Positions 7,867 to 44,190 of a stretch of DNA of 64,000 nt are shown piece after piece. The translations under genes were made by a program, and so were the position numbers. The stretch lies in assembly GCA_051313645.2 (NCBI GenBank), contig JBNRSN020000007.1, forward strand, positions 98,766,001 to 98,830,000. Reading direction: 5' to 3'. Every line of letters starts with the position of its first letter. Positions within the stretch are counted from its first letter, which is position 1. The stretch comes from Centroscyllium fabricii (lineage: Eukaryota). The notes beneath the pieces were generated by a model. It had not been told where the DNA came from and did not search any database. It was given only the letters and a program-made list of their open reading frames with translations.

Positions 7867-8128
7867 TGTGGTAACCCTTATATGGGTAACCCTTATATGG
7901 GTTACCATTGTTGTATACCTGTGTGCAAAGATGCTGCTGGGAGCCAGGTCAGCCACACCCCCGACTCCTCCCCCCAGGTGGGAGCACTATAAAGGTGTGG
8001 TCTGACCCAGCCCCTTTCATTCCTGTATGTGATCTGCCGAGGAGATTAGCTCCATTCTTTATTAATTAAAAGCCTTGTGTTAACGGTAACTACGAGTCGT
8101 CTTTAATTAAGTTAGCGACCATGCTACA

Positions 8129-11100: not shown

Positions 11101-11731
11101 GAACGGCCTATGCGAACGGTTCCACCGCTCAATGAAGTCATCACTACGAGCCACACTAAAGGACGCATCGTGGACCGACCGCCTTCCATGGGTTCTCCTC
11201 GGGCTGCGCTCGGCAGTCAAGAAAGAACTAAACGCCTCGGCAGCAGAGCTCGTCTACGGCCAAACTCTAACGGTGCCGGGCGAGTTCCTGGCTGAGCCCA
11301 ACGCTCCCTGGTCAGCCGACCAGTATTTAAAAGACTTCGCCAACCCGGCACGAGCTTTCCAGCCACTACCAGTGGCCCGGCACGGAGAGCCGGCAGCTCG
11401 GGTGCCGGACGACATTAAAAAAGCTAAATTTGTGTTCGTCCGGCGCGACGGACACCGATCTCCACTACAGCCACCGTACGATGGCCCCTACAGAGTGCTT
11501 CGGGCGGGAGCTAAAGCGTTTGAATTACAAATGGGCAACAGGACTGACACTGTGACAATAGACTGGCTCAAGCCGGCGCACGTTATAGCGGGTGAGACAA
11601 CGGTCCCCGCACAACCACCACAACGCGGTCGCCCTCCCGCAACAAAACCCGCCCACACTCCACCGCAGAACCAGGAGCAACAGACAACACGGTCCGGCCG
11701 CATCATCCGGCCACCCCAACGGCACACATAG
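8129..11731 (+). CDS. gag-pol: Uninterrupted remainder of the gag-pol polyprotein of element B (1200 aa)
   Basis: CHCC finger [18 protein letters not shown]; protease CDTGA; RT YLDD; RNase H TDASD; integrase HHCC, DLVGP, SDRG, GLCER; GPY motif. Confidence 0.93.
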
Positions 11732-12008
11732 ACTCTGTCACTATTCCTCCCGGACGGATTCTGGGGGGAGCTGTGTGGCGGCACGCCCACTGAGACATTG
11801 AATCCGCCACAGGAACTCCGCGGAGCAAAGCCCCGCTCATCCGGGTGACGCGATGACGTCACCAACCGCGGGACTGTTTAAATACGCTCGTTGCGAGTGG
11901 TTCACTCTCTTTCTTGTTTTGTTTAGTATATTAAAGCTGTGTTTTCTCTAGCTCTGGCTCACGTGTGGTTCCTAGGCCCTGCCGGTGCTACAATACGTCA
12001 ATTTTAAT

Positions 12009-12836
12009 GGGCCCTGTTTTCCTGTGCTCCAGAGGAGCTGCACACTCACGAAGTGGGGTCAGAAATGCCCCGTGGGTGTGCAGCACAGGGGATGCCCACG
12101 AATGGTAATTTCCTGTGCTGATGGGCAAGGCCCGTCAGCTTCCAACGCAGGAAGACCTTGCACTGACGATTTCCTGTCAGAACGGTGATTTTTGGAGAGT
12201 GATTCTGTGTGCAACTGGCTCACAAGCTGCACATTTAAAAACCAGTAGTAAGGGGAGAAGATTTAGTTACTGAAGCAGGTAAGTTAATTTTTTAACTTAA
12301 ATTTTAATTTTTTACAGTTTTTGGGAGTAGTGTGGCCAGATCGGTAGCGTTAAATTTTTAAGTTAAAGTTTTTAAAAAAAAATTACAAATCCAATTTTAA
12401 GTTAATTTACCTGTTTCAAATTACTAATTTTTAAAGTTAAATTTCTGAAATTTTTAACTCTCTAGCTATTAAAAAATCTAAGAGGAAAAAATGGGAGACT
12501 TACCTTCCGTTTCTTCCTCTGAGAAGCTGCTGTGCCCGCGCTGCTCCTCCACCGAGTCTGTGAGTGCAGCTCCGCACTTCCCTGCTCTCACAAAGGTCCG
12601 ACTCGGGATCTGTTTATTTAAATTAGGGATCTGGGGGTGTTTTTTATTTAAATTTGGGATCTGTGGGCGGGGCTTACACTGCGCATCTAGCGTGGCTGGA
12701 CTGCCACGCAGCGCAGGAACGGGGAGGAACGGTTAGGAAATTGACGTTGAAACTTCTGTGCAATGTTGGTGCGTGAGATTAGGAGTCCCCAGGGTCCTAG
12801 CGCACGCACTAACCGGCACACAGGAAAACAGGGCCC
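12009..12836. mobile_element. Non-autonomous DNA transposon (MITE), probably ISL2EU/Harbinger-related
   Basis: TIR gggccctgttttcctgtg / cacaggaaaacagggccc; AT on both sides (TA or TTAA readings are also formally possible). Confidence 0.8.
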
Positions 12837-12854
12837 ATTAACTTTATTTTTAAA

Positions 12855-13059
12855 ATGGAGAGTAACGCAGTGAAACCGGACAGACTGGATATAAATCCAC
12901 AAGAACCAGACGCTGCTAACAATTTCGAACATTGGTTCGGCCTAGTCGAGGCCTACATGAAGGCCGCAAAGGCAACGAGCGATGGGGACAAACTGCAGGT
13001 CCTCTCGTCAAGAATCAGCAGCCTGGTGTACTCCTTCATCCGCGGCCTCACGACATACT
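12855..13059 (+). pseudogene. gag: Truncated gag of element A
   Basis: KPDRLDINPQEPDAANNFEHWFGLVEAY aligns by eye with D gag KPEKLDISPQDPAAPATFEHWFGLLEAY. Confidence 0.85.
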
Positions 13060-13156
13060 GCAAATACTGCCCATGCACAGAAATTTAAAGATATCGCGCA
13101 TTAAGAAAAACAGGCCACGCAGAACAAAGCGCAGCTAACCGGAAACATTGGAGATA

Positions 13157-14697
13157 GTCATTGCCTGGCACTTGTGTGGTGCGAATGTTACTGCCACTTA
13201 TCAGCCCAAGCCTGAATGTTAACCAGGTCTTGCTGCATGCGGGCATGGACTGTTTCATTATCTGAGGAGTTGCAAATGGCACTGAACACTGTGCAGTCAT
13301 CAGCGAACATCCCCACTTCTGACCTTAAGATGGAGGGAAGGTCATTGATGAAGCAGCTGAAGATGGTTGGGCCCAGGACAGTACCCTGAGGAACTCCATC
13401 AGCAAGCTCCTGGGGCTGAGATAATTAGCGTTCAACAACCACAACCATATTTCTTTGTGCTAGATATGACTCCAGCCAGTGGAGAGTTTTCCTCTGATTC
13501 CTATTGACTTCAATTTTATTAGGGCTCCTTGATGCCACACTCCGTCAAATGCTACCTTGATGTCAAGGGCAGTAACTCTCACCTCACTTCTAGAATTCAG
13601 CTCTTTTGTCCATGTTTGGACCAAGGCTGTAATGAGGTCTGGAGCTGAGTGGCCCTGCCAGAACCCGAACTGAACATTGGTGAGCAAGTTATTGGTGAGT
13701 AAGTGCCGCTTAATAGCACTGTCAGCGACACTTTCCATCACTTTGCTGATGATTGAGAGTAGGGTGATGGTGCAGTAATTGGCCGGATTGGATTTGTCCT
13801 GCTTTTTGAAGATAAGACATACCTGGGAACTTTTCCACTTTGTTGGATAGATGCCAATGTTGTAGCTGTACTGGAACAGCTTGGCTAGAGGTGCGGCTAG
13901 TTCTTCAGCACGACAGCCGGGATGTTGTTGGAGCCTTTCTTGTATCCAGTGCGCTCAGCTGTTTCTTGATATCACATGGAGTGAATTGAATTGGCTGAAG
14001 ACTGGCTTCTGTGAAGGTGGGGACCTCAGGAGGAAGCCAATATGAATCATCCACTCGGCACTTCTAGCTGAAGATGGTTGCAAACGCTTCAGCCTTTACT
14101 TTTGCACCCACGTGCTGGGCTCCACCATTATTGAGAATGAAGATTTTCATGGAGCCTCCTCCTCCTGTGAGTTAATTGTCCACCAGCATTCATGACTAGA
14201 TGTGCCAGAACTTCAGAGCTTTGATTTGATCCATTGGTTGTGGGATTGCTTAGCATGTCTATAGCATGCTGCTTCCACTGCTTTGCATGCATGTAGTCCT
14301 GTTTTGTCACTTCACCAGGTTGGCACCTCATTTTTAGGTACACCTGCTGCTGCTCCTGGCATGCTCTTCTACACTCCTCATTGATCCAGGGTTGGTCCCC
14401 TGGCTGGATGGTAATGGTAGAGTGAGGGATTACAGATTGTGGTGCTATACAATTTTGCTACTGCTGATGGCTCACAGCGCCTCATGAATGCCCAGTTTTG
14501 AGCTGCTAGATCTGAATCTATTCCATTTAGCACAGTGGTAGTGCCACACAACACGATGGAGGGTGTTCTCAGTGTGAAGACGAGGCTTCGTCTTCACAAG
14601 GATTGTGCAGTGGTCACTGCTACCAATACTGTCACGGACAGATGAATTTGCAACAGGTAGATTGGTGAGGATGAGGTCAAGTAGGTTTTTCCTCATT
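13157..14697 (-). mobile_element. Degenerate CR1-group LINE ORF2 (endonuclease end and RT)
   Basis: NLLDLILTN...SSDH (APE C-terminus) and QFGF..GHSAPDLIT..ALDIK.AFD.VWH (RT). Confidence 0.8.
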
Positions 14698-15317
14698 GCT
14701 GTGAGTCTGGAGTCACATATAGGCCAGACCGGGTAAGGGCAGCAGATTTTCTTCCCTAAAGGACATCAGTGAACTAGATGGGTTTTTATGACAATCATGG
14801 TCACCATTACTGATACAGGTTGAGCACCGTTAATCTGGCACGGCGGGACCAGGCCCGTGCTGGGAAAGTGAAAATCCCGAACGATTGAAGCGTCGGTGAG
14901 CGCATGCGCAGACCATTCAAAATGGCCGCTGCGAAAGGCTGGCGGCCATTTTGAGTGGTCTGCGCATGCGCTTGTCATTCGGGGAGGCCCAGGATCGGCT
15001 CGGAGAGGCCCAGCGAGGTTGGGCTCTGACGTATCGTCAAGGTCTTCAATTAAAAGAGTCGACGCGTAGTTACCGAAACTAAAGGCTTTTAATTACTAAA
15101 GAACGGAGCTACTCTCCAGACGAACTACTGTACAGGAATGGATGGAGCCTCGGTCAGACCACACCTATACCAGGGCCTCACCTGGGGGAGGAGTCGGGGG
15201 TGTGGCTGACCTGGCTCCCAACAGAGTCACAGTAAACAGGGCTGTGCCTAACATCTGCACAGCCCATCATTAGCCATGGTGATACAGTGGTATAACTGAT
15301 ATAGAACGGTTACCACA

Positions 15318-18300
15318 TTCACCCCTTCTTAAAAACTTTGAGTCCAGGGTGGGTGAATGGATTGAACAGTTCATAATTAATCTGTCCGGCGGTCGTGTCT
15401 GCCTGGAGGACCGCCGGCGCTCCGGTGTTGGCGGCGGTGCCTCCTGGGTCAAATGGTCCGCATCTGCCGGCGCTGTGACTTCAGGTGGCGGCGGGCTCGG
15501 CTGGTCCCCGCCGTCCGGGTCGTAGTCGGGGAAACTCGGGGGCCATCGTGCGATTGGTGGTTGGTCGGCCTGCTGGCCAGCAGGAGGCGCTGCGGTGGTG
15601 TTTCCGGCCGGGGCCAGGTCCCTGATGGACACGGTGTCCTCACGCCCGTCCGGGAACTGCACGAAGGCGTAGTGCGGGTTTGCGTGTAGGAGCTGTACCA
15701 TGTCCACCAGGGGGTCCATCTTGTGGTTCCGGACATGCCTTTTAAGCAAAACCGGCCCCGGAGTCGTCAGCCATGGAGGAAGAGCTGTCCCCGAAGTCGA
15801 CCTCCTGTTAAAAGAAAAAATCAGATCGTGCGGGGTGGCGTTAGTGGCAGTACACAACAGTGAGCGAATAGAGTGCAGCGCGTCTGGGAGGACTGCCTGC
15901 CAATGGGACACTGGAAGGCCTCTGGACTTGAGGGTCAGGGTGACCGCCTTCCAGATGATCCCATTCTCCCTTTCTACCTGGCCGTTCCTCCGGGGGTTAT
16001 AACTGGTCATTCTGCTCGTAGCAACCCCTCTCTGGAGCAGAAACTGGCGCAGTTCATCGCTCATGAACGATGACCCCCCGGTCGCTATGGATGTAGCTGG
16101 GGAGACCGAAAATGGCGAACAGCGCGGTGAAGTGTTTGATCACCGTTGCGCTCGTCATGTCTGGGCAGGGGAAGGCGAATGGGAAGCGTGAAAACTCATC
16201 CACTACCGTGAGGAAGTATGAGTTGCGGTCGGTGGAAGGGAGGGGGCCTTTGAAGTCCACGCTGAGACGTTCAAAGGGGCGGGTGACCTTAATGAGGTGC
16301 GCCGTGTCTGGCCGGAAAAAGTGGGGTTTGCACTCGGCGCAGACAGGGCACTCCCGGGTCATAGCCTTGATCTCCGTAATGGAGTAGGGGAGGCTACGAG
16401 ATTTGACGAAATGGGCGAGTCTGGTGACACCCGGGTGGCAAAGGCGGTCGTGGAGGTCCTTCAGCCGGTCTAGCTGGGCACTGGCGCACGGTCCCCTGGA
16501 CAGTGCGTCCGGGGGTTCGTTGAGTTTGCCTGGTCGGTAAAGAATGTCGTACTCGTAAGTCGAGAGTTCGATCCGCCACCGCAGGATCTTATCATTCTTG
16601 ATTTTACCCCGTTGTTTATTATTAAACATAAACGCCGTTGGTCGGTGAGCAGGGTAAAACGCTTACCGGCCAGGTAATGACGCCAGTAGCGCACGGCCTC
16701 CACGATGGCCTGGGCCTCCTTTTCCACTGCTGAGTGGTGAGTTTCGGGTCCCTGTAAGGTGCGGGAGAAAAACGCTACGGGCCTGCCTGCCTGATTCAGG
16801 GTGGCAGCAAGGGCGAAGTCCGAAGCGTCACTCTCCACCTGGAAAGGGATTGGTTCATCAACAGCGAGCATGGTCGCCTTGATAATATCTTCCTTTATCC
16901 CTGCGAATGCCGTTTGGGCTTCTACAGAAAGGGGGAAGACGGCAGCCTTGAGGAGTGGTCTAGCCTTATCTGCGAACTGTGGGACCCATTGTGCATAATA
17001 GGAGAAAAATCCTAGACATCTCCTCAAGGCTTTGGGGTTGTGAGGTAGGGGCAGTTCTTGCAAGGGTCGCATACGCTGTGGGTCGGGGCCGAGGAGCCCG
17101 TTTTCCACCACGTATCCGAGGATGGCGAGCCGGGCTGTATTAAAGACACATTTGTCTTTGTTATACGTGAGATCCAGCTTAGCCGCCGTGGCGAGAAATT
17201 TTGCTAGATTGGCATCGTGGTCCTGCTGGTCGTGGCCGCAGATGGTCACGTTGTCCAGGTAAGGGAAGGTGGCCTGCAAGTCGTTTTGGTCAACCATACG
17301 GTCCATCTCCCGTTGGAACACTGACACTCCGTTGGTCACGCCAAAGGGGACCCGGAGGAAGTGGTAGAGCCGACCGTTCGCCTCGAAGGCGGTGTAGGGG
17401 CGGTCAGCTTTCCGAATCGGGAGCTGATGATACGCCGTTTTAAGGTCGATCGTAGAGAACACCTTGTACTGGGCGATCTGATTGACCATTTCTGAGATGC
17501 GGGGAAGGGGGTAGGCGTCGAGCCCGGTGTAGCGGTTGATAGTCTGGCTGTAATCGATAACCAGCCGCTGTATTTCGCCAGACTTCACCACTACAACTTG
17601 GGCGCGCCAGGGGCTGGTGCTGGCTTCAATTATCCCCTCCTTCAGCATCCGCCCGACCTCCGACCTGATAAACGTGCGAGCCCCCTCACTGTACTGCTGA
17701 CTCTTAGTGGCAATGGGTTTGCACTTCGGATCGAGGTTGGCAAACAGCGAGGGGGGGTCGATTTTCAGGGTGGAGAGGCCGCAGGCCGGGCTCCGCTTTG
17801 GGAGGAGATTGTCCCGGCTACTGACGGTGAGGGGGGGTAAGGTCCCGCCGAACTCCATTGTCACACTCCTGAAGTGGCACTGGAAATCCAAACCTAGTAA
17901 GGCTGGGGCACACAACTGTTGGAGGGTATACAATTTAAAATTACGGTACACGCGTCCCTTGATGGTGAGCGCGACGGAGCAGTAGGCGGTGATGTCCGCG
18001 GTGTGGGACTGTGAAGCTAGGGAGACTTGGTAGTTGGTGGGCAGGACCTGCAGTCCGCAGCGCCGCACTGTATCAGGGTGAATGAAACTCTCAGTGCTGC
18101 CTGTGTCGAAAAGGCAGTCAACAGTATGCTCATTAATGCTAATCGGTATTATTGAGTTAGACAGGGTATGGGGCCTGCCCTGGCTAACTCTGATTCTAGC
18201 TGCCGCAGCCCCTGCTGATCGGGGCTGTGTACAAGATGGCGTCGCCCCTGGCTCGCACATGGAGGGGTCCTGGGTACAAGATGGCGGCGCCCCTGGCTCG

Positions 18301-19616
18301 CACATGGAGGGGCCCTGGATACAAGATGGCGTCGCCCCTGGCCCGCAGCTGGTGGGGCCCCGTATACAAGATGGCGTCGCCCCTGGCTCGCACATGGAGG
18401 GGCCCTGGATACAAGATGGCGTCGCTCCTGGCCCGCAGCTGGTGGGGCCCCGTATACAAGATGGCGCCGCCCCTGGCTCGCACATGGAGGGGCTCTGGTT
18501 GCAAAATGGCGTTTCTGAGGGGACGCACGCGGTGGGGCCTTGTGAACGCGCTGGCGGCGCCCGTGATTCGCACGCAGCGAACCGCGGTGATCGGGTTGGC
18601 GGTGCCCATGATTCGCACGCAGCGGGCCGCGGTGATCGGGTTGGCGGTGCCTGTGATTCGCACGCAGCCGGCCGCGTTGGGGGGTCGCGCTTGGCCGGCC
18701 TTTGCTGCATCAGGGTGGGGGATGGGGGCGCTTGTTGTTTACCCCCGTACCGTCGCTGGATCGCGCTGCTATTGCAGCTTACCTGGTGTCTGTCGGTGCT
18801 CTCACAGGCTGCACTGTTGTACCTTGAGTTGGGCGCTGCTGGAGCTGATCTGCAGGCTTTAGCGTAGTGTCCCTTCTTTGCACACTTCTCGCAGGTCGCT
18901 GTCCTGGCTGGGCATTTCGCTCTAGGGTGCAGTCCCTAGCTGCAGAAGTAACAGCGCTTGCTTTTAACGTCTTTAATGTCTTTAGTGGCCGTCGCGGCCA
19001 TCGTGGGGGCCCCGGCCCGTGGCGCCCAGGCCTGGGCCTGTTGTGGCGCGGCCCATATGTTGTAGGCTTGCGGGTTAGTGCCGCTGTATGCCTGTAACTT
19101 GCTACGGGCCCCCTCTACCGATTTGGCTAACGTAGTCGCCTCCTCGAGGGTTAAATTGTCTCTCTCTAGTAGCCGCTGGCGGGCTTCCACACACCTCAGT
19201 CCTGTGACATAAGCGTCCCGAACGAGGAGTTCTTCCTCCTCTGCAACAGTTGTGCCTTTGCAGCCACAGGCCCGTACCAGGGCCAGGAGCGCTTGCTCAA
19301 ACTCCTCATTTGACTCACCCGGTAGCTGAGGTCTGGTCGCCAGCACATGTCGGGCGTAGACCGAATGGACTGGGCGCACGTAACATTTCTTCAGGATTAG
19401 TATAGTCCTTTCGTAGGTTGAGGCGTTCCTGACGAGGGTGAATACCCTGCTGGAGATTTTTGATCGCAGGACATGTAGCATGTCCTTGTCTGATGTAGCC
19501 TCGGCGGCTTCCATGTAGGCCTCCAGAAGGCCGAACCAGTGTTCGAAGGTAGCGGGAGCAGCAGGGTCCTGGGGACTGATGTCCAGCTTCTCAGGTTTAA
19601 CTGTGCTGCTATCCAT
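15318..19616 (-). pseudogene. gag-pol: gag-pol of element D, originally a single ORF (TAG at 18936, frameshifts near 16635 and 16075)
   Basis: ORF 18936..19616 is in frame with 16470..18710; protease FDTGS, RT YLDN, RNase H and integrase motifs; tandem arrays at about 18230-18670. Confidence 0.9.
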
Positions 19617-19767
19617 TTTAAAATAATTTAGTAATTAAAATTGACGTATCGTCAAGGTCTTCAATTAAAAGAGTCGACACGTAGTTACCGAAACTAAAGG
19701 CTTTTAATTACTAAAGAACGGAGCTACTCTCCAGACGAACTACTGTACAGGAATGGATGGAGCCTCA

Positions 19768-21181
19768 TGTAAGGGGTTTGGCAGCCGGCCTTCTCCAGGC
19801 TCGACCTAGAGTCCCTGCACCTTGCCTTGGTCCCGCGACCAGGCCTCGCACACCGGGTCCCTGTGAGCGGTTCGAAACGCTCCCCCCTACGGTTCTCGAC
19901 ACTGGGCTTATGTACAGGAGTTGTGATAGTGTAGGTAATTCCTGCCAGAACAGAGTTCCAAGAGACCAGAGATGTGATGTTTAAAACACAGTTCTTTATT
20001 ACACATTCAATACTTTACAAAAGTAGAACCAAACGTTAATCATTGTTAAAACAGGATGGAGAGGGTACGACACAACGTAACATTGGGCAAACATTAAACA
20101 GCTACACCCCAATATGCTTCCACGACACCCACCCTCCACTTCCTACACTATCCTATGTCCAGACGTGCAGAAGCGGAACACCATACTCACCATGGGCTAT
20201 GTTTACTGGGGGTTCGGGGTTCGTTGGTTGCACCTCCTTCGTCCTTCGATTAGGTAGCTGTGGAAGGGGCTCTCTCTCTCTCTCGCTCTTCCGCCTTCCT
20301 GGCTTCCTGGCACCGACTTCTGATGCAGGCAAGCACTTTTCTAGCTGATCTCTAACCGAGTGCACCTTTCTTTCTGGTTCAGACCTCCACTGCTTCTCTC
20401 CAGCTCTTACTTTTAAATCGATACTGTTACTGTTTCTGGCTATTAACTGCCATCAGCTCTTTGCTTGAGCTCTCGTTCTTCAGTTCGTCAGCCTGTTAGC
20501 TTCCTAGCTCATCAGTTACCCTCTGTCCGACTCCCTCTGTCCGTTGTGTTTTCTTAGTTCAAAACCCTGGGCCGTTATACCCCCGCACCTCGCGCTTATC
20601 TGCGCGCCAGATCTAGCGTGCCCTTTTGTCTTTAAGTGAGGTTAGATCTGTTCTTTTCTGTTCTGATGGTCGCCTAACAGACTGGTAATCTCCTGACCAC
20701 CTGTAAACGTTTTTCCTGTTAAGCGATCTCTGTGCATAAGCTTTTTCCCATCACCTGCCCTCGGGTTTCTATGGGCCTTTTGTTTTAGTTGACGAGGTTA
20801 CCTCGGTGCCCTTTGTCCATCTGCTGGACACCGGCGCCTCCCAGTCTGGGGACTCGATCTCGTTATGTGGGCTATTCATGACCAATATCCAAAGTCTATC
20901 TGGTCATGATTTTGCAGAAAATGTGTGTGTGGGGCTGTTTTAGCTTCACTCTGCCAGGCTGATCACGTGGTCGGCGAAGCCATTTTGTGGCCCCTGCTTG
21001 TGTCTGGTTTTCTTTTAAAAGTCTCTGGCTATGGCCCTTTTCCCTGGTACAGAGCCACATCTCCATACCCAGGGTGCCCCCACATTATCGGTTTTAACAA
21101 AAGCATGTTGCTTGCAGTTCTGTGTTATGAAAAGTGTTGATAGTAGTTCTGGATCCGGGAAACATCAGCTCAAATCTTACA
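19768..21181 (-). repeat. 3' LTR of the gag/env element
   Basis: Direct repeat of 26909-28322; minus-strand TATAA near 20577 and AATAAA near 19997. Confidence 0.95.
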
Positions 21182-21604
21182 GTCCCTCCTGTTTGATTCC
21201 ACACACCCCAATGTGTTGCAATCAAATTAAATTACGGTTGAGCTATGTTTTCCCGGTTGTCCACGTCCAGACCCCCACTATTTTACCTAAACTAGTGCCC
21301 AAGTACTTAACGTACAGTCCCCATCTTTCAGGCCGACCTATACATTACTGCCTTCCCGGGTCACTATATACACATAAACATTCCCCAGATTTGTGCCCGT
21401 CTTTCAAAACTTACACCCCTTTTCCTCGGCTGATGCCGTCCACCAACCGTCCTCCTGTCGGTGATCGTTTTATTGGGGCACAAAGATCAATACATACACC
21501 ACAAAAAGAAAATACCTTCAAAACTTAAACGTAAATATCTATACAGTGTTTTCAATGAGACTCTCTCACAGAGAGGTAAAATTGGAGGTGACTTCTTCCC
21601 CATG

Positions 21605-24079
21605 TCAGCAGCTTGTCTCTGCCTCCGGTTCGTCCGCCCTGACGTACCGGTCCCTCCATTCCCCTCTGCCTATCCGGCTGCGAAGCCGCTGTCTCCCTCT
21701 GCACTGTCCACATATTAAATAGGACACTATAAAAGCTTGCACCACCACTAACACGTGTGATGCAATTCTAACCCAAGATGGGACTTCTATATTATTGAAC
21801 AGGTCCCACCACGGGGGAACCACTATCTCCAATATGTCTGCCCCAATCTTATCTGTCTTCTGTTCCAGGGTGTAAAAATGCTTTTGCGATACGGCAACTG
21901 CTTTTAAAAGTGTTGTGAGGTGTTCGGGGAGAGGGGGTATGGCATACCCAAAATGCGCCACAAAGTGCTGCAGGTTGGTGAAATTCTCCCTTACAGTGAT
22001 GTGAACCGTGGAGGGTTCAGGTATGGGGACGATTCGCAGCTGTGCCACTTGAACCTCTGCCTGTGGTTTAAAACAGAAGCTGCTGTCACTCACCGGACAT
22101 AGGCCATGCTGCCCGTGTCGGTAGTGTTGCGCTGCAGTGGTAATACAGTAAGTACCACCCCCTATGTATGCCACCTGTGGAGGGACATGGTCCTGTGCCA
22201 TCGCCTCCATAGTGCAATTCATAGGCTTCGCGCCAACAGCCCTGAACCCACACTACTGTACCCGCAAGACATTCAAGTGCTGGGGACACAATATTATGTG
22301 TGCTCCCCTGCTCCGGCACCCCGAGAGGTCTGTACCTGTCATCGACTGCTCCCAGCGGACAACATACGGTGGGACCTCTGCGTAGCGAACGTGTACTCCC
22401 CCCTGAATGACTCCGATGTTCTCCACCCTGTATACCGGTGCGGGCCTTGCCGTCTTGCCCAACACCGGCATCCGTACCACCACTCCCATGACCGTGTAAT
22501 TAGAACGCCCACAGTCAATGGGAACCGGGTACGCCTCTGACGCCAACCTGAGCTGACACGGTGTAAGCGCGTTCTGAAAAGGCTGCAGTGCTTGGAGGTG
22601 TTTGTTACTGATCCAGGACGGGACCAACCCTTGCTTCAGGTCCTCAAGGTTGCTGCGGCCCTCGCCCAGCAACCACGCCCCGTACAGAACGCACACCTCG
22701 TTCTGCGCAGCCTGGTCAGAAGCGTTCCGATCTTCCTTGATCAGAGCGTTCACCGTGCTCGCGTGTCTTTCTAATTCCGCGATTATCTCGCGCAGGTGCA
22801 GTGTCATCGCCTGGTCCTCATGGAGCTCCGACCCGACGACCTTGTTCTCCTCCGTGAGGATGTCCTTCAACTGCGACTTTAAACCGTTTATCTGGGTCTG
22901 CAGCTCCATGGTGTCGAGAGCGTTGACCACAGAGGCTCCGGTGTTAAAGCCCGTGAACACATCATTCACTACACCCCTCTTTTGTCTCCCCGTTTGGCCC
23001 CATGTCTCTGGCCCTTGGCGGTACAGGCTTGCCTTGTCTACACTGGCCAGGTCAAATTCGTAAAACTGCCTGTACATATTTGCCAGCAGCACCTGATATA
23101 ACCTTTCGGTCTCCTTGGGGCACCACTCCGGCAACCTTACCTCGGTGAGGTTTAAAATCACCGAGGCCACCGTGTAGTGCACCCCCTGGTATAATACCTG
23201 GCCACCCTGGCCATTCTCGGGCCCCCGTGTAGTCTTGGGGCACCCACCCTCCTGTGCTGCTGCCCGCCTCGGTGTGGGAGGTGTTGTGCGTGGTCGGGTG
23301 ACGAGTTCAGTGGCGTTAACTGGGCTCGGGGAAAATGGGACCCCACAGGCTTGTGAGCTAACATCCCACCTCATCCCCTTACCACCATCTTGCCACTGCT
23401 GGTGGAAAAATATGCTGTTCCCTGTGGGGCACAAATACCTGGAACCCCACATACACACATAAATTCCCTCATCAGGCTCCCACCACTTGTCCCAACAGAC
23501 ACTCAAACTTTCATTAGTCCCAAAGACTGTCCTGTGAGTGTTGTTGTCCAGCTTTTCCCAATTCACGGTTGAGTTGGCCATGGTCCGGCTGGTTTTACGT
23601 AGCCACCACCTCAACCGGGTGTCGACCTTTCCGGTGCACCTCAGGCAAATCCTCTTGCCGGCCGTGACGCTGATCTTCTGGGCGACGATCTTCACTTTTG
23701 GGCACAATAACTCAGTGTCCCTGAAGAAAAATCCTGGGGTGCCGAGATACTCAGAAGCGTTCGATCCCAGCCACCCTGGCCATCGCCCCTGGTGGAAGAA
23801 AACGGCAGCTCCTTCGGTTGTCCGTTGTCCCGTCCCATCGGTCGCGGTAGGCGCGGTGCTTCCCGAACATCCGTATACCACGATGTCCTGGGTGCGGCCC
23901 CGATAGGCCCACCCGCATCCGATCGCCAGGAAGATGATTCCCCATCTTAGTGCCTCGTTCGGTTCCTGAAACAGATAACGTTGGTATAGCCAGCCTCTCC
24001 AAGAGCGCTTGGCTGTGTTAAAGACCCATGCTTGGGTCTGATGACCCCAGCCCGTACCCCGCATCTGCACCCTGGACAC
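21605..24079 (-). CDS. env: Envelope / class I fusion glycoprotein, about 820 codons with one in-frame TAG at 22253-22255
   Basis: ORFs 22253..24079 and 21605..22222 share a frame; signal-like WGIIFLAIGCGWA; Ig-like C..W..DEGIYVC; furin site RQKR; fusion-peptide-like GVVNDVFTGFNTGASVVNAL; heptad repeat; Cys-rich ectodomain; TM IASHVLVVVQAFIVSYLIC. Confidence 0.85.
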
Positions 24080-24183
24080 ATTGCCCCTTTTACCTAACCC
24101 AGTAAAATATAACTTAACTTACCACTAAACTTCTTAAAACTACCTAGCCTATAATACAGCGCCGCCCTTCCAAGGCGGCCAGG

Positions 24184-25137
24184 CTAATCCTGATCCAGGC
24201 TGCAGCGCGCCGCTGTCTGTGGCTTGGCCGCGCTGCCTGCATCCTTTGAAGTGCCGCAGCCTGTGGCTGCCTGCCAGTGACCATCTTCCTTTCTCCAACC
24301 CAACAAACTGCCTGTCGCTGGGGCCCCGTACCATTCCGGCCAAAGCTTCCTCAGTTGAGGTATCCTGCTGGACCTACGGAGAGTCACCTCAGGCACGGCC
24401 CCCTGGGCAGCCCGGTTGAGGACAGGTTCCCGCCGTGCCGCAGCTCGGGTGAACCCCGCAGCTGCCGACCCCGGCCCTTCCTCATCCAGCACTACCCCCT
24501 TGGGGTTGGGTATATCCGCGGCTTCCGACCTCACCCTGTCTGTGACAGGTGGTGAGTCTCCGCCCGCTACCCCCGCCTCCCTGGTGCTTGAGTCGAGGAT
24601 GCTCTCGTCATCCCCCTCCGACTCCCACTCCTCCGTCATGAGATTCAGCCCCAGACCGAGCTGATCAGGCTCGTCTTCGTCTGAGTCCCATCCAAACCGG
24701 GACGCCCTCCATTGCTGGGAAACGTCTTCCTCCTTTCCCCTCACGCAGGCAGCTTTACCCACCTGCGTGACCTTCCTCATTTTTGGCTGTGATTCTCTAT
24801 CCACAGGGCTTGCCCCTGTGACTGACCCCTGTTTTACCTGCTGCAGCTGACCTGTTGCAGCCTTTGAGGTTTTAAACTCCCTTTTGACTTCAGCTGCCTG
24901 GGTTTTTGCCTCCAGGCTAAACAGCTTGCACCTGCTGTGAAGCATTTTAAAAACCTTGAGTTCTTCCTCTAAACTGCTAGCTTTTGCCGCTAGCCTGTCA
25001 TTCTCTTTCCTTAAAGCCCGTTCCACGACCTGAGCTCCTGCAACCTGGCACCCCAGGAAGTCCTCCAAATTACCGGAGGTCTCTTCCTCTGCATGTCTTT
25101 CCGAGGGAACCGGGTTGACAGGCTGCGCGGGCTCCAG
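24184..25137 (-). CDS. ORF2: coiled-coil plus acidic/disordered protein in frame after the gag TGA (possible readthrough extension)
   Basis: Open from 25137 to the stop at 24184 in the gag frame; no protease, RT or integrase catalytic motifs. Confidence 0.6.
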   Translation of the reverse strand: MEPAQPVNPVPSERHAEEETSGNLEDFLGCQVAGAQVVERALRKENDRLAAKASSLEEELKVFKMLHSRCKLFSLEAKTQAAEVKREFKTSKAATGQLQQVKQGSVTGASPVDRESQPKMRKVTQVGKAACVRGKEEDVSQQWRASRFGWDSDEDEPDQLGLGLNLMTEEWESEGDDESILDSSTREAGVAGGDSPPVTDRVRSEAADIPNPKGVVLDEEGPGSAAAGFTRAAARREPVLNRAAQGAVPEVTLRRSSRIPQLRKLWPEWYGAPATGSLLGWRKEDGHWQAATGCGTSKDAGSAAKPQTAARCSLDQD

Positions 25138-26904
25138 TCACTGGGGAATGTCCGGTGTCCCCCCCGCACCCGGGGAGCCGGTGGCGACTGCAACCTTCCC
25201 TTGTGCTTCCATGAGGGACCGCATCACCTCGATCATTGACTCCAACGTTTCGGGCTTAACGGCTATCTCAGCGCGCGGAGCGGGGTTGGCCCTAACCTCC
25301 TTGGGGAAAGCCCTGCAGTCTTTCCTCCAGTGCCCCACCTTACCGCACCTAAAACACTTGGACTGTGTGGCAGGGTTGCCCTCCTGACGCCATTCCTTCG
25401 GGGCCGATGTAACGGCCTCCGCTACGTGCACCTTCCCCTTGACCGACTTGGTGGCGGTGCTCCGGGTGTTCCGATACCCCACGGTGAGGCGGTCCAAAAC
25501 CGCGTCCTCCGTGGTGTTCGTTGGGTCGAACCAGGCTTTCGCCTGCTCCCGGACAGCTGCTAGGCTGTTCGTTACCAAGCACCGAAGCCACTGCGCCCTA
25601 ACATTCCCGACCAGGGCATCCCGGTTCGGGACCTGCGGGCAGCTACGTTGGTAGACCGGCCACAGTCTCGCCGCAAAAACCCTCGGAGGTTCTCCCTCCA
25701 TCTGGAGAGTTTTCCCCAAGCGGGCAAATGGACCCTCATCGTCCGTGCCTAAAACCTCCAGAACCTCTTCCCTTAACTGTTCGTAGGTTCTGGTACCCCG
25801 TTTGCTCTCATCACTGAGGCACTGAAGGAGTGAGTAGTCCAGGGAGAACAATAGCATCCTCGCCTGCTCCCCCTCGTCGCAACCATTGATTGCGGCGGTC
25901 TGCTCAACCTCCTGAAAATGCAGTGAAGGGTCCCCCGATTCGGACAGCTTCTTGACTTGCCCGACCATGGACCTCAACTGCTGGGCGCTGTGGGGCACTA
26001 TAATCTGACTTTGGACAGGCCCGGGATCCCCGTTCGCTGCGTCGGGTCCCCGCCTGGTCTCCAGCAATGGACACATCGGTGCCTGCGCCGGTTCCCTGGC
26101 CGGTCCCCACCCCTGCTCACTCTCCCCAGCGCCCCCCTTCTCCCAGGAAGCCTCATAGCTGGGGGGATCGTGATACGTGGGGGCCGAAGCCACCACGGGC
26201 ATGCACGGACCCCTTGCTGGAACCCTTGCTGCTGCCAGTGATGATCCCGCTGCGGGGTTCATAAGGCAGACCAACCCACTAGCCCTATCTAAGGCGCTGC
26301 GCAGGCTTTCGATCTCCTCCCTACAAGCCCCGTGATCAGCCCCTTCGGACCGATCCTCCAAAGCCATTTTATAGGCTGCTTTAACCCCCCGGAGAGTCTC
26401 CCCTGTGGCTCCCAACTGTTGGTCTAGGCCGGCACACCGCTGCCTAATTGCGCCCTCACTGAGCTTAGCGTCAGTGATCTGGCACTCCAACAGTTCAACC
26501 TTGGCCTCATATCGGTTGACCAAAACCCGGCGCTCCTTGTTCAAGGAGTCCAGGGCCTCGATCAACTGGAGCCCTCCCTCAGCCTTTTCACTCACCTCCT
26601 CACGGAGGTTCCCTATCTGGGCTGCCTGCGCTGCCACTACACGGTCCAGGAGCTGGACCTGCTTCTTGTAGCACGACAGCCAGACGGCCTTTTCTACCAA
26701 TTTCTTGTGCGCCTTGCTGGACGTCCACCGGATCGCTGCATCCAGTGGGCGCTTGTCTTCCAGCAACTCACACATCCATGGCTTGGTCAGATTGACCTTG
26801 CTGAACACATAGTCGGCCATGCGTTCATCTATCATATCCCTAGTTCTTACAACCGTTTCTGGCACACTATCATCCTGTTGCCAGTGTCCCTTCGTGGACG
26901 CCAT
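25138..26904 (-). CDS. gag: Gag, 588 aa, intact
   Basis: N-terminal coiled coil, PPSY late-domain-like motif, helical capsid-like region, CCHC knuckle CFRCGKVGHWRKDC. Confidence 0.88.
   Translation of the reverse strand: MASTKGHWQQDDSVPETVVRTRDMIDERMADYVFSKVNLTKPWMCELLEDKRPLDAAIRWTSSKAHKKLVEKAVWLSCYKKQVQLLDRVVAAQAAQIGNLREEVSEKAEGGLQLIEALDSLNKERRVLVNRYEAKVELLECQITDAKLSEGAIRQRCAGLDQQLGATGETLRGVKAAYKMALEDRSEGADHGACREEIESLRSALDRASGLVCLMNPAAGSSLAAARVPARGPCMPVVASAPTYHDPPSYEASWEKGGAGESEQGWGPAREPAQAPMCPLLETRRGPDAANGDPGPVQSQIIVPHSAQQLRSMVGQVKKLSESGDPSLHFQEVEQTAAINGCDEGEQARMLLFSLDYSLLQCLSDESKRGTRTYEQLREEVLEVLGTDDEGPFARLGKTLQMEGEPPRVFAARLWPVYQRSCPQVPNRDALVGNVRAQWLRCLVTNSLAAVREQAKAWFDPTNTTEDAVLDRLTVGYRNTRSTATKSVKGKVHVAEAVTSAPKEWRQEGNPATQSKCFRCGKVGHWRKDCRAFPKEVRANPAPRAEIAVKPETLESMIEVMRSLMEAQGKVAVATGSPGAGGTPDIPQ
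26886..26903 (-). promoter_or_regulatory. Primer-binding site, tRNA-Arg(TCG) type
   Basis: TGGCGTCCACGAAGGGAC, 5 nt after the LTR; 17/18 to TGGCGACCACGAAGGGAC, the complement of vertebrate tRNA-Arg(TCG) 3' end as recalled. Confidence 0.8.
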
Positions 26905-26908
26905 AATC

Positions 26909-28322
26909 TGTAAGGGGTTTGGCAGCCGGCCTTCTCCAGGCTCGACCTAGAGTCCCTGCGCCTTGCCTTGGTCCCGCGACCAGGCCTCGCACACCGGGTC
27001 CCTGTGAGCGGTTCGAAACGCTCCCCCCTACGGTTCTCGACACTGGGCTTATGTACAGGAGTTGTGATAGTGTAGGTAATTCCTGCCAGAACAGAGTTCC
27101 AAGAGACCAGAGATGTGATGTTTAAAACACAGTTCTTTATTACACATTCAATACTTTACAAAAGTAGAACCAAACGTTAATCATTGTTAAAACAGGATGG
27201 AGAGGGTACGACACAACGTAACATTGGGCAAACATTAAACAGCTACACCCCAATATGCTTCCACGACACCCACCCTCCACTTCCTACACTATCCTATGTC
27301 CAGACGTGCAGAAGCGGAACACCATACTCACCATGGGCTATGTTTACTGGGGGTTCGGGGTTCGTTGGTTGCACCTCCTTCGTCCTTCGATTAGGTAGCT
27401 GTGGAAGGGGCTCTCTCTCTCTCTCGCTCTTCCGCCTTCCTGGCTTCCTGGCACCGACTTCTGATGCAGGCAAGCACTTTTCTAGCTGATCTCTAACCGA
27501 GTGCACCTTTCTTTCTGGTTCAGACCTCCACTGCTTCTCTCCAGCTCTTACTTTTAAATCGATACTGTTACTGTTTCTGGCTATTAACTGCCATCAGCTC
27601 TTTGCTTGAGCTCTCGTTCTTCAGTTCGTCAGCCTGTTAGCTTCCTAGCTCATCAGTTCCCCTCTGTCCGACTCCCTCTGTCCGTTGTGTTTTCTTAGTT
27701 CAAAACCCTGGGCCGTTATACCCCCGCACCTCGCGCTTATCTGCGCGCCAGATCTAGAGTGCCCTTTTGTCTTTAAGTGAGGTTAGATCTGTTCTTTTCT
27801 GTTCTGATGGTCGCCTAACAGACTGGTAATCTCCTGACCACCTGTAAACGTTTTTCCTGTTAAGCGATCTCTGTGCATAAGCTTTTTCCCATCACCTGCC
27901 CTCGGGTTTCTATGGGCCTTTTGTTTTAGTTGACGAGGTTACCTCGGTGCCCCTTGTCCATCTGCTGGACACCGGCGCCTCCCAGTCTGGGGACTCGATC
28001 TCATTATGTGGGCTATTCATGACCAATATCCAAAGTCTATCTGGTCATGATTTTGCAGAAAATGTGTGTGTGGGGCTGTTTTAGCTTCACTCTGCCAGGC
28101 TGATCACGTGGTCAGCAAAGCCATTTTGTGGCCCCTGCTTGTGTCTGGTTTTCTTTTAAAAGTCTCTGGCTATGGCCCTTTTCCCTGGTACAGAGCCACA
28201 TCTCCGTACCCAGGGTGCCCCCACATTATCGGTTTTAACAAAAGCATGTTGCTTGCAGTTCTGTGTTATGAAAAGTGTTGACAGTAGTTCTGGATCCGGG
28301 AAACATCAGCTCAAATCTTACA
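26909..28322 (-). repeat. 5' LTR of the gag/env element
   Basis: Direct repeat of 19768-21181, followed by the PBS and gag. Confidence 0.95.
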
Positions 28323-28496
28323 GTCGGTCAGACCACACCTATACCGGGGCCTCAGCTGGGGGAGGAGTCGGGGGTGTGGCTGACCTGGCTCCCAACAGAG
28401 TCACAGTAAACAGGGCTGTGCCTAACATCTGCACAGCCCATCATTAGCCATGGTGATACAGTGGTATAACTGATATAGAACGGTTACCACAGGCTC

Positions 28497-28810: not shown

Positions 28811-29116
28811 GTGAATGATCTGCACATGCGCTCACCGTTTGGTGGCGCATGCGCAGATCAATCATCGAAGCATCAATCGCGGTGGCCATTTTGCGCATGC
28901 GCGGCGCAGTCGGGGAAATTATTGCCGGACGTTCGAAGCTGCCTTTTTTTGGGTAACGGATTACTGGTGCTCAACCTGTACTAACCTTTTATTCCAGATT
29001 TATTTAACTAACTGAATTTAAATTCCACAGGTGCCGTGGTGGGATTTGAACTCATGTCTCCAGATCATTAGTCCAGGCCTCTGGATTACTAGTCAGTAAT
29101 ATAACCACTATGCTAC

Positions 29117-32100
29117 TGTAACCTTCAATTACGTTCTCGGAGTCGAGTAGTAGATTAGAACAATCAGGCTTTTATTCACTACAGTTAGATTACACACCAG
29201 CAAGCTGACTGTCCCCTGGAATGGCACGGGGGATGGGGGCAGTCACTTATATACCTCCTCCAGCGGGGGAGGAGTCGTGGGCGGAGCCGGGAATGTTCCA
29301 GGTATCATCTCGCAGTGGAATACAGTACAGGTATAGGTTACATGGTGATACATGGTGATTAGCTATATACAGTGATATACACGTTTATCACATTCACCCC
29401 TTCTTTAAAACGAAAGTACAGCGGGGTGAAAAAGACTAATAATTACAAGAATGATCACAGGGAAAAAAAAAATATATTACAAACAGGGTTCTTATGACTA
29501 CAGGTTTAGTCTATCAGGCGGTTTCGTTGTCCGCGTTGATCTTCGCACCGCTGGTGGTGCCTGTGGTGTTCGTGGTCGTGGAGCGGCTGGTTGTGTCGGT
29601 TGCTCCATTGATGCCGGTCGACTAGTGGTGGTTGTTGTATTATTTCTGGGTGGCAGTGGTGCCCTTATTCTGACAGCAGGGGGCGCGTTCTCTCCTTCGT
29701 CCTCTGACTCTAGGGGGCGCGCGTTGTGGATCCAAGCTTGGGGCCCGGTCGTGCTGCTCGCAGGTGCCTTGTGGACATACTGGGGTACTGGGCCCACGTG
29801 TCGGGGTGTGTACTTCGGCTTCGGCGGCATGGGGAGCGTCACAGGATGTTTTGGGTGCGCGGCCTGCTGGGCGGGGCTTCTTTGGAGCTCGGGCTGCCTG
29901 GCGGGGCTGGGTTTTGGGACTCCTGCTGGGGCTAGGTCCTTTATGGACACGGTGTCCTCCCTCCCGTCGGGGAACGCTATGTAAGCGTACTGGGGATTGG
30001 CGTGCAGGAGGTGGACCCGTTCGACTAGGGGGTCTGCCTTGTGTCCCCTCACATGCTTCCGAAGCAGGACCGGTCCCGGAGATAGTAGCCACGATGGTAG
30101 CGAGGTCCCGGAAGCTGACTTCCTGGGGAAGGCAAAAAGTCTTTCGTGAGGGGTGGCATTGGTGGCAGTACACAGGAGGGACCGGATGGAGTGGAGTGCT
30201 TCAGGGAGAACGTCCTGCCATCGGGTGACTGGGAGGTCTTTAGACCGTAGGGCTAACTGGATGGCTTTCCAGACCGTGGCGTTCTCCCTCTCTACCTGTC
30301 CGTTCCCCCGGGGGTTGTAGCTGGTAGTCCTGCTAGTCGCGATGCCTTTCGCTAGCAGGAACTGGCGCAGCTCGTCGCTCATAAAAGAGGCCCCCCGGTC
30401 ACTATGGATATAGTTGGGGTACCCGAACAGGGAGAAGATGCTACTGAGAGCCTTGATGACGGTGGCGGAGGTCATGTCCTGGCAGGGGATGGCGAAGGGG
30501 AAGCGGGAGTACTCGTCGATGACGTTGAGGAAGTACACATTCCTATTGGATGAGGGAAGGGGTCCTTTGAAATCGACACTGAGTCGTTCAAAGGGGCGAG
30601 TGGCCTTAATCAAGTGCGCCGGTCTGGCCGGTAAAAGTGCGGCTTGCACTCCGCGCAGACCTGGCAGTTGCTGGTCATGGTCTTGACCTCCTCGATAGAG
30701 TAGGGGAGGTTGCGGGACTTAACAAAGTGAACCAACCTGGTGACCCCCGGGTGGCAGAGGTCATTGTGAAGGGTTTGGAGACGGTCAGCCTGTGCGCTGG
30801 CACAGGTACCGCGGGATAGGGCGTCTGGGGGTTCGTTAAATATCCCGGGCCGGTACAAGATATCATAATTGAACGCGGATAGTTCAATTCTCCACCTCAA
30901 TATCTTGTCGTTCTTGATTTTACCCCGTTCCTTGTTATTAAACATGAATGCGACTGATCGTTTGTCAGTCAGTAGGGTAAAACGTTTGCCGGCCAGGTAG
31001 TGCTTCCAGTGCCGCACTGCTTCAACAATGGCCTGGGCCTCCTTTTCAACTGAGGAATGGTGGGTTTCGGGGCCTTGGAGGGTACGTGAAAAGAAGGCCA
31101 CGGGTCTGCCCGCCTGGTTAAGGGTGGCGGCCAGGGCAAAGTCCGATGCATCGCTCTCTACCTGAAATGGGACGGACTCATCCACAGCGTGCATCGTGGC
31201 TTTGGCAATATCGTTTTTAATTCTGCAGAATGCCGAGTTGGCTTCTGCAGAAAGTGGAAAAGAGGTCGATTTAAGTAGTAGGCGAGCTTTGTCCGCATAA
31301 TTGGGGACCCACTGGGCATAATACGCGAAAAATCCCAAACACCGTTGAAGAGCTTTGGGGGTGTGGGGGAGGGGAAGCTCCATGAGGGGGCGCATGCGGT
31401 CCGGGTCTGGACCGATGACTCCATTCTCCACCACGCTGCCGAGGATGGCCAGGCGGGTGGTGTTAAACACACATTTCTCCTTATTGTATGTTAAGTTCAG
31501 GGTTTTGGCCGTGTGGAGAAATTTTTGGAGATTGGCGTTATGGTCCTGCTGATCATGGCCGCAGATGGTCACATTATCAAGATACGGGAAAGTGGCTCGC
31601 AGCCCGTACCGATCAACCATTCGGTCCATCTTCCTCTGGAAGACCGAGACCCCGTTCGTGACGCCAAACGGAACCCTAAGGAAGTGGTAGAGGCGACCGT
31701 CAGCCTCGAAGGCTGTATAAGGACGGTCCTCTGGGCGGATGGGGAGCTGGTGATAAGCCGATTTTAGATCAATCGTGGAGTACACTTTAAACTGGGCGAT
31801 TTGGTTCACCATGTCCGCTATCCGGGGGAGGGGGTAGGCATCTAGTTGGGTGAACCGGTTTATGGTCTTGCTGTAGTCCACCACCATCCTATTCTTCTCC
31901 CCGGTTTTAACTACTACTACCTGCGCTTTCCAAGGGCTATTACTGGCCTCTATGACCCCCTCTTTTAGGAGGCGCTGCACCTCAGATTTTATAAATACCA
32001 TGTCCCCAGCACTGTAGCGCCTACTTTTGGTGGTGACGGGCTTATAGTCTGGGGTGAGGTTGGCAAAGAGAGATGGAGGGGCAACCTTAAGGGTTGAGAG

Positions 32101-33758
32101 GCCACAGGTAGTGTACTAGGGGTACCGCCTTGAGCCGCGGTTTCTGACCGTGAGTGAGGGAAGGGATCCGCCGAATGCCATCGTAACGCTCTGAAGGTGG
32201 CACTGAAAATCCAGTCCCAGGAGTAGGGGGGCGCAGAGCTGCGGCAGCACGTAAAAACTAAAGTCGTTAAACATTGCGCCCTGTACATTAAGCGTTACAA
32301 TACAGCGCCCGGTGACGTCAGCGGATTCCGACTTGGACGCCATCGATATTCTCTGGCGCGCAGGGATTACTCTAAGGGAGAGGCGCTTTACAGTATTTTG
32401 GTGAATAAAACTTACTGTGCTCCCACTGTCGAACAGGCACACCACTTCTTCCCCGTTGACTTCCACCGGCATCATCGATTTCTCCAGTGGTTGAATCTTC
32501 CTCTGGTCTAGGCTCATGGATGCTAACACCGGGTCCTCCGAGTTGTCTTGATCCGGAGAGTAGTCCTCCAAGTCTGCTCCCCAAGATGGCTGCCGCCATG
32601 TGGTGTACTGTGGAGGTGGAGGCTGAGTCCAAGATGGCCGCTGTTGCTGCTGCTGCCACGAGGGCTGCTGAGTGGGGGATGGGTGAGCCCAATATGGCTG
32701 CTCCCCTGTTCTACACGCGGCACTGCCCAGTTTGGATTTTGCGCTAGTGTTTTTACAGACCTTCGCATAATGTCCCTTCTTGTCGCATTTTGAGCAGGTC
32801 GCTTCTCTAGCAGGGCAGCTGCGTCTTGAGTGCTGAGGTTGTCCACAAAAGTAGCATTTAGCTTTAGCGTGGGCAGCTGTGAGTAATTCTTCTGCCGGTC
32901 GTTGCGCCAGCACTGTCCAAGATTGCGGGGCTGGGCCCGTATAGTTACTTGAATATGAGGATAGGTCCATTGATGCGCTATCCAGCGCGTGCCCCAAGTC
33001 TGTAGTCGCCTGTAAGTCCTGGCCGTTCTGCTCCAGCAGTCTCTGCCTGGCATAGTCCGATTTTAGGCCTGTTACATAGGCGTCTCGGATGAGGCTCTCT
33101 ACATGGACTTGAGCCGTTTGCGCTCTGCAGTCGCAGTCCCGTGCCAGAATTCTGAGGGCTCTTAGGACTCGTTATTTTGTTGCTTCCTGGTGGCGAGTAT
33201 ATGTCTCGCGTGGACTATGTTTGGTGCCCGATTATATTCCGTCTCGAGGATCCTGATGGCCTCTTGGAACGATGGGGCGTCCACTATCATCGAGTACACT
33301 TGAGGGCCCACCCGGGCATGGAGGAGTCGCCGTTTTTGCTCCTCGGTCACTATGACCGCCGCGTTGGCTCTGATGTACCCTTCGAGCATGTTTCGCCAGT
33401 GTGAGAAGGCGTTCGATGCTCCTGAAGATCGGGGATCAACTTCGAACACTGCTGGTTTAAGCATTGTGGTATCCATTTTACAGTAGTGAATAAAATTGTA
33501 ACCTTCAATTACGTTCTCGGAGTCGAGTAGTAGATTAGAACAATCAGGCTTTTATTCACTACAGTTAGATTACACACCAGCAAGCTGACTGTTCCCTGGA
33601 ATGGCACGGGGGATGGGGGCAGTCACTTATATACCTCCTCCAGCGGGGGAGGAGTCGTGGGCGGAGCCGGGTATGTTCCAGGTATCATCTCGCAGTGGAA
33701 TACAGTACAGGTGATATATGGTGATTAGCTATATACAGTGATATACACGTTTATCACA
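29117..33758 (-). mobile_element. Gypsy element E (YLDN family, divergent subfamily); LTRs 29117-29392 and 33497-33758
   Basis: Perfect 5-bp TSD gctac (29112-29116 / 33759-33763); LTRs differ by a 14-bp indel and a few substitutions; PPT aagaaggggtgaa. Confidence 0.93.
29498..33476 (-). pseudogene. gag-pol: gag-pol of element E with about three frameshifts
   Basis: ORFs 33162..33476 (gag), 32116..32997 (knuckles, FDSGS protease), 30610..32001 (RT YLDN, RNase H), 29498..30649 (integrase). Confidence 0.9.
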
Positions 33759-42203: not shown

Positions 42204-42649
42204 TACATGTTAGCTAATAGTGGTTTTACAACTAAAATGCTTTTGGCTAAATAAATAAGTAAGTAAATTTTATTGTCACATAAATGAACACATTCAATTA
42301 GTGAAATGCCTACTGCTATTCCACGTGCTAGATAACAATTAACAACAAAAAAACCACTAGAAACATAGCACGCCCAGAACCCGCAAGACGTCAAGCCATT
42401 CTCCGGCGCCATCGTTGAGGGTCCGCTAGTGCTCCGGCTCCAGAGCTCGATGTTATTAACTAACAACCATAACGATAACTGTAACGATAACTGCTGATTT
42501 GAGGTCCTCAATGATTACGGGAGTGAAAAAAACTAGAGGCCTGATGTCCGACCGTCGGTCCGAGGACAGACCCCAATGAAACGCCGGATCACCACAGGAG
42601 TGAAGTCACTGAGACCCGACCCGCGGCCCGGCGAACTTTGAGCTCCCAC

Positions 42650-43150
42650 CCACGGGAGTGGAGAGGCCCGACCACGGCCCTGCGAACTTCGAGCTCCCGC
42701 CCACGGGAGTGGAGAGGCCCGGCCATGGCCTGACGAAACTCCAAGCAGCGCCCACGGGAGTAGAGAGGCCCGACCATGGCCCGACGAAACTCCAAGCTCC
42801 GCCCATGGGAGTGGAGAGGCCCGACCATGGCCCGACGAAACTCCAAGCTCCGCCCACGGGAGTGGAGAGGCCCGACCATGGCCCGACGAAGTTCGAGCTC
42901 CCGCCCACGGGAGTGGAGAGGCCCGACCATGGCCCAACAAAACTCCAAGCTCCACCCACGGGAGTGGAGAGGCCCGACCATGGCCCGACGAAACTCCAAG
43001 CTCCGCCCACGGGAGTGGAGAGGCCCGACCATGGCCCGACGAACTTCGAGCTCCCGCCCACGGGAGTGGAGAGGCCCGACCACGGCCCTGCGAACTTCAA
43101 GCACCCGCCCACGGGAGTGGAGAGGCCTGACCACGGCCCGATGAAACTCG
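42650..43150. repeat. 51-bp minisatellite, about 10 units
   Basis: Unit ccacgggagtggagaggcccgaccatggcccgacgaaactccaagctccgc; appears as 17-aa repeats in several frames. Confidence 0.92.
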
Positions 43151-43803: not shown

Positions 43804-44190
43804 GAGGCGGGTATCCGACCTGTGCTGGGAGCCGCCTCCCCGAGGCGGGTATCCGACCTGTGCTGGGAGCCGCCTCCCCGAGGCGGGTATCCGACCTGTG
43901 CTGGGAGCCGCCTCCCCGAGGCGGGTATCCGACCTGTGCTGGGAGCCGCCTCCCCGAGGCGGGTATCTGACCCGTGCTGGGAGCCGCCTCCCCGAGGCGG
44001 GTATCCGACCTGTGCTGGGAGCCGCCTCCCCGAGGCGGGTATCCGACCTGTGCTGGGAGCCGCCTCCCCGAGGCGGGTATTCGACCTGTGCTGGGAGCCG
44101 CCTCCCCGAGGCGGGTATCCGACCCGTGCTGGGAGCCGCCTCCCCGAGGCGGGTATCCGACCTGTGCTGGGAGCCGCCTCCCCGAGGTGG
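43804..44190. repeat. 38-bp minisatellite, about 10 near-identical units, within a probable MITE (about 43685-44859)
   Basis: Unit gaggcgggtatccgacctgtgctgggagccgcctcccc. Confidence 0.92.

Follow-up and report, generated by a model that had tools for sequence, protein, structure and literature searches.

The start codon of a retroviral envelope gene is likely supplied by the long terminal repeat (LTR) of its own element in the genome of Centroscyllium fabricii. The element lies on the minus strand of the window analysed here, a stretch of 64,000 nucleotides (assembly GCA_051313645.2, contig JBNRSN020000007.1, positions 98,766,001 to 98,830,000; all coordinates below are window positions), and belongs to a lokiretrovirus-like family that we term family A. 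The env mRNA of this family would start at the LTR promoter, be spliced from 27331 to 23966 and be translated from an ATG inside the 5' LTR. A first-pass annotation of the window had proposed such a donation of the Env start by splicing, and the proposal is now supported by a comparison of four families of related elements and by the loss of the competing unspliced leader in a second organism.

Predicted joint between the LTR and env

On the minus strand, an ATG at 27334-27332 is followed directly by GTGAGTATG, with the donor beginning at 27331. The full donor, GTGAGTAT, occupies 27324-27331 and lies 190 nt upstream of the polyadenylation signal AATAAA (27136-27141). Ahead of env, the acceptor TTATCTGTTTCAG (23966-23978) ends with AG at 23967-23966, and GAA begins at 23965. 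The predicted intron comprises 3366 nt, and its removal joins the two sides in frame: no codon is split at the end of exon 1, and codon position 1 of env falls on 23965. The predicted spliced N-terminus consists of Met and 20 residues read from 23965, together 21 residues ending G-W-A before Y-R-G, with a hydropathy peak of 2.6 across WGIIFLAIGCG. It was judged to be a signal peptide by hydropathy and by the -3/-1 rule for signal-peptide cleavage. Exon 2 (21605-23965) encodes the rest of this signal peptide, an RQKR cleavage site, an F-type ectodomain and a transmembrane segment, and its first in-frame Met occurs only at residue 129. The positions, frame and peptide length given by the first-pass annotation were all reproduced, as were its two tiny reading frames ahead of the LTR ATG.

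Scored with approximate weights, the LTR donor was the top GT of the LTR (9.9, versus 8.3 for the next) and the second among all GTs upstream of env, while the acceptor at 23966 reached 3.9, which placed it tied fourth among 366 AGs. None of the 28 AGs between 24300 and 24060 exceeded -1.5. A candidate hairpin upstream of the acceptor was discarded, as it was no better than shuffled controls in 5/5 sequences (z -0.64 to 0.54).

According to the proposed mechanism, the env mRNA would begin near 27690, and ribosomes would pass two tiny upstream open reading frames (uORFs) of 2 codons (27645-27653) and 8 codons (27568-27594), by leaky scanning or re-initiation, to reach the LTR ATG in its moderate context. 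On unspliced RNA this ATG opens a further uORF of 16 codons; on the spliced RNA, exon 1 would contribute this one codon and no other to the signal peptide. U1 bound at the same donor would mask the 5' polyadenylation signal, as in foamy viruses. The spliced RNA would have lost the primer-binding site (PBS) and the packaging region. The arrangement probably arose through a change to A at -3 of the donor and the gain of a single base behind the acceptor, which would have rendered an internal ATG dispensable.

Start codons in four families

The 7.2-Gb genome was searched with diverged Env proteins and DNA, which yielded three further families, B, C and D. The env nucleotide identity to family A is about 79% for B and about 68% for C, which includes a subgroup E. 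Family counts were taken from an alignment of 80 loci plus the window, in which one family D locus failed to align. All four families keep a TG|GTRAGYAT donor between the TATA box and the polyadenylation signal, and the acceptor occupies the same place in each. The donors of A and B can be aligned base by base; for C and D the match is one of motif and of location between TATA and AATAAA.

The triplet at the donor is ATG in 28/28 LTRs of family A, GTG in 12/12 of B, TTG in 7/7 of C and GTG or GGG in 8/8 of D; ATG occurs there in 0/27 LTRs of the three sister families. These families carry an ATG of their own 11-18 nt after the acceptor in 52 of 56 cases (B, 11/11 at 11 nt, with one at 12; C, 23/25 at 13 nt; D, 18/20 at 18 nt). 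In family A, an in-frame ATG after the acceptor was found in 0/21 copies. GCA stands at that position, the Met of B being aligned with Ala5 of A, and family A is one base longer than B after the acceptor. No family has the start codon on both sides of the intron: it stands either after the acceptor or at the donor, and at the donor only where the env side is without one. Family A is probably the derived state, as judged by parsimony and branch lengths on unrooted trees.

The donor triplet is in frame with env in family A and out of frame in B and C, while the GTG of D is in frame. Donor and acceptor are conserved among the relatives, and the phase is not; such a lack of conserved phase, which the first-pass annotation would have counted against its proposal, does not matter in B and C because these families have their own ATG. 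Given the conserved TG|GT, the chance of finding both an A at -3 and the right phase is about 1 in 12. The evidence exceeds chance because of the reciprocal pattern across families and not because of the phase match in the window alone.

A promoter module, GGCG..GATAAG..TATAA (27713-27752, with TATA at 27720), is present in A, B, C and D, 120-680 nt upstream of the donor, with AATAAA 150-335 nt downstream of it (15 rows, two of which matched a different TATA-like site). Because of this placement in four families the donor can be assigned to the R region, as the first-pass annotation had suggested, and we infer that transcription starts at about 27690. Since the donor lies upstream of the PBS, the spliced RNA would lose the latter. 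The module, in which a GC element that we take to be E2F-like and GATAAG precede TATA, has been retained though the LTRs otherwise barely align.

Other readings of the env start

The unspliced frame offers an alternative, in which ATG 24064 is the Env start and the leader has 53 residues, on an RNA made from an internal promoter or with an acceptor further upstream, and the LTR ATG is incidental. We consider this quite unlikely. The additional 33 codons (23966-24064), intronic if the LTR joint is used, encode mostly polar and basic residues, in line with the atypical longer leader noted at first pass. They are open in the window and in 20/20 fetched family-A copies, and long retroviral Env leaders exist. 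However, family B has this leader closed by stops, the conserved acceptor falls within it, and none of the 28 AGs upstream makes a good acceptor. In a second organism, the main A-like contig (runs X1, X2 and X7, from two studies) has a stop at leader codon 17 and non-synonymous changes at four further leader codons, while its acceptor is intact and no in-frame ATG has been created. Another contig of this organism (one run, depth 3.6) carries 1 extra nt within the pyrimidine tract, which shifts the frame of the leader. Two Rhinoraja gene models (P0002, P0007) have an A-type N-terminus without a Met at that place, and group with A at 100/100.

It is very unlikely that the acceptor is instead used from a donor-like site within gag (26590-26595), which would fuse Gag(1-103) to Env in the manner of idefix-type errantiviruses. 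This site has the top score upstream of env (11.2, versus 9.9 for the LTR donor) and is in phase 0 with env. Yet it is variable within family A, reading GTGAGT in 3/8 copies and GTGAGG in 4/8 and being disrupted in 1/8, no donor consensus is present in 4/4 B copies aligned there, and 103 Gag residues ahead of the signal peptide would bury it.

Most improbable is a reading in which the main task of the donor is to suppress 5' polyadenylation by way of U1, with family-A env barely translated and the ATG a product of drift at a free position. The layout of donor before polyadenylation signal does resemble that of foamy viruses (available text of PMC3694450), the ATG is no more conserved than its neighbours, and the chance of its occurrence is about 1 in 12. 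But most of the best 76 of 13,928 matches retain a long, open env frame, which holds even in pol-less copies; env differences between A and B seldom break the frame, a pattern that requires translation; and U1 masking is compatible with a start at the LTR ATG rather than exclusive of it.

Several observations weigh against the LTR start codon. Among 15 of the 20 joints listed for contigs of four runs over 21190-28325, none linked 27332 to 23965, and among 20 of the 33 loose ends listed for four runs over 23840-24140 none lay at the acceptor; in both cases the contigs come from runs not on record as RNA, and the negative is uninformative. The open 33-codon leader in 20/20 family-A copies also counts here, albeit weakly, the copies being 97-99% identical. 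The ATG has C at -3 and two uORFs upstream, and its A is not more conserved than those nearby, with 1 variant site compared with 2 and 3, relative to 1056. As the GTG of D is in frame as well, a phase match alone is not diagnostic, and the homology of the D donor consists of position and likeness only. The A-type elements of the second organism and of Rhinoraja are documented on the env side of the joint alone. Finally, the families are not rooted: even with outgroups, neither a tree of the env C-terminus (18 rows) nor a pol tree (13 rows) gives a branching order for A, B and C/D.

The element, its relatives and implications

The element extends from 28322 to 19768 and sits inserted within the LTR of a gypsy element. 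Its LTRs, of 1414 bp each, differ at 9/1414 sites; the bounds of the 5' LTR could be refined to 28322-26909, with TG...CA ends, and the 3' LTR (19768-21181) contains a second ATG|GTGAGT at about 20193. In between lie gag (25138-26904), with a CCHC knuckle and closing in a TAG in frame with pol, a pol remnant (24184-25137) and env, which in this copy is interrupted by an in-frame stop at 22255-22253. Comparison with other copies places the loss of about 3.66 kb of pol between 25121 and 24832. Of 20 fetched copies, 11 have this pol segment, 8 are colinear with the window copy and 1 is rearranged; because the pol carried by 11/20 is absent from it, the window copy is a non-autonomous, pol-less derivative of its family. 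Family A is young and high-copy, with about 99% identity among the best 76 of 13,928 candidates scored. In pol-bearing copies, pol follows in frame behind the gag TAG and encodes reverse transcriptase (RT), two RNase H domains and integrase; in one such copy (L007) RT_RNaseH/RT_RNaseH_2 was located at 470-602 and RNase_H at 650-792.

The gag start codon, at 26904, overlaps the PBS (26886-26903), presumably of tRNA-Arg type, and gag of family B likewise begins at the PBS edge. In 4/8 family-A copies with a different PBS, the front ATG is lost and an in-frame ATG occurs inside the PBS four codons on; the PBS types appear to us to represent different tRNA-Arg species. The pol-less gag-env subfamily has been amplified, as neighbouring donor sites, for the first 100 of one contig (C1), are spaced 7.0-7.7 kb apart in 20 cases versus 10.4-10.8 kb in 8. 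Clean 4-bp target duplications flank 7/8 other copies; the flanks in the window, 19764-19767 and 28323-28326, each differ from the host 4-mer at the base adjoining the LTR. The window is otherwise a dense nest of gypsy LTR elements (3000-19700, 29000-33700, 54000-63700), several with recent identical LTRs, and contains tandem repeats at 42574-43236, 43728-44259 and 49880-52300.

A structural model of the Env ectodomain (pLDDT 68) gave the F proteins of human parainfluenza virus 3, Newcastle disease virus and respiratory syncytial virus as top Foldseek matches (best E 9e-7); sequence-only Pfam and PDB searches with Env found no F-type homology, the fold search alone matching. As modelled, this Env is a relative of Mononegavirales F and has a signal peptide, the RXKR-type site RQKR, coiled coil and transmembrane segment. 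Among named Env relatives the nearest come from Rhinoraja, Pristiophorus, Mustelus and Chiloscyllium, and the nearest pol relatives are dual-RNase H proteins of frog and coelacanth (44-46%), with no named lokiretrovirus reference among them. The element appears lokiretrovirus-like because its features match those given for lokiretroviruses or lokiorterviruses in the available text of PMC7947760 and PMC9040795, namely gag-pol-env between LTRs (here at family level, 11/20 copies having pol), a tether and second RNase H, and an Env with an RXKR site and a paramyxovirus-F-like fold. Unlike lokiretroviruses, no smc gene was seen in this element; unlike errantiviruses with a single gypsy-type RNase H, it has two such domains. 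Among the survey supplement rows listed in the accessible part of PMC7947760, lokiretroviruses were recorded in 0/6 cartilaginous-fish genomes, whereas the nearest named relatives of this element are from skate and sharks. Loki-like families A-D, with dual RNase H and F-type Env, are abundant in the present genome. The string 'splic' is absent from the main texts of PMC7947760 and PMC9040795, where lokiretrovirus splicing is undescribed, and had no match in the available part of PMC13524379.

In foamy viruses the donor lies in R upstream of the polyadenylation signal, and U1 masks 5' polyadenylation (PMC3694450, available sections). The present element shares a donor inside R, upstream of AATAAA, in both LTRs, given the predicted start site. 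It differs in its LTR-derived env start codon, none being described in those sections, and in having pol in frame behind the gag TAG instead of on its own spliced mRNA. No long sense-strand open reading frame that could represent accessory genes was found between env and the 3' LTR. In Drosophila errantiviruses, according to the accessible text of 10.1101/2023.08.03.551782 and PMC2585583, an F-type Env is started from an upstream exon, provided by a small peptide lying upstream of gag (ZAM, Beagle), an AU dinucleotide (springer/gypsy) or a Gag peptide (idefix), and the Springer donor lies 43 nt downstream of its LTR, without an AUG (PMC13097621, in part). In contrast, the whole ATG and the donor lie here inside the LTR, upstream of the PBS. 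Avian leukosis/sarcoma virus env receives its start from an upstream exon with the Gag start codons, and snakehead retrovirus env from a leader reading frame upstream of gag; both exons give several codons, not a lone ATG, and are not known to lie in the LTR R region. The available parts of PMC2717909 and PMC9143442 did not contain these two precedents. Mouse ERVL/MaLR LTRs form 5'-exon platforms that carry a promoter and a splice donor and, in some cases, a functional AUG (PMC5538554, available text); that AUG serves host or de novo genes, whereas the present ATG would act for the env of its own element. The literature searched yielded neither an env that begins at an LTR ATG nor an account of lokiretrovirus splicing, a weak negative given the poor coverage of subscription papers. 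Each ingredient thus has a precedent, and the arrangement of an LTR ATG and donor upstream of the PBS for the element's own env is likely new.

The 21-mer spanning ATG and donor occurs in 1056 exact copies in the genome, and 35 of the first 100 listed sites have no same-strand partner within 20 kb. Two Pristiophorus gene models (P0006, P0010) fuse env to host Niban-like and zinc-finger exons, which suggests that host transcripts capture the acceptor or the env exon, unless the models are mis-annotated.

The results provide a concrete env transcript model for lokiretrovirus-like elements, whose gene expression is undescribed in the papers found, and point to a loki-like clade among hosts for which the founding survey was negative. 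The four families represent a natural experiment in which the start codon swaps sides of an intron, and annotation based on open reading frames would give such Env proteins the wrong N-terminus. About 1056 LTR sites could act as ATG-bearing first exons. More tentatively, and as a possibility we rate below even, a loki-like lineage abundant and recently active in cartilaginous fishes may have moved its env start codon into the LTR, so that about a thousand LTRs, a third of them unpaired, would constitute promoter-ATG-donor cassettes for host or new proteins, with a single U1 site coupling the masking of polyadenylation to the initiation of env.

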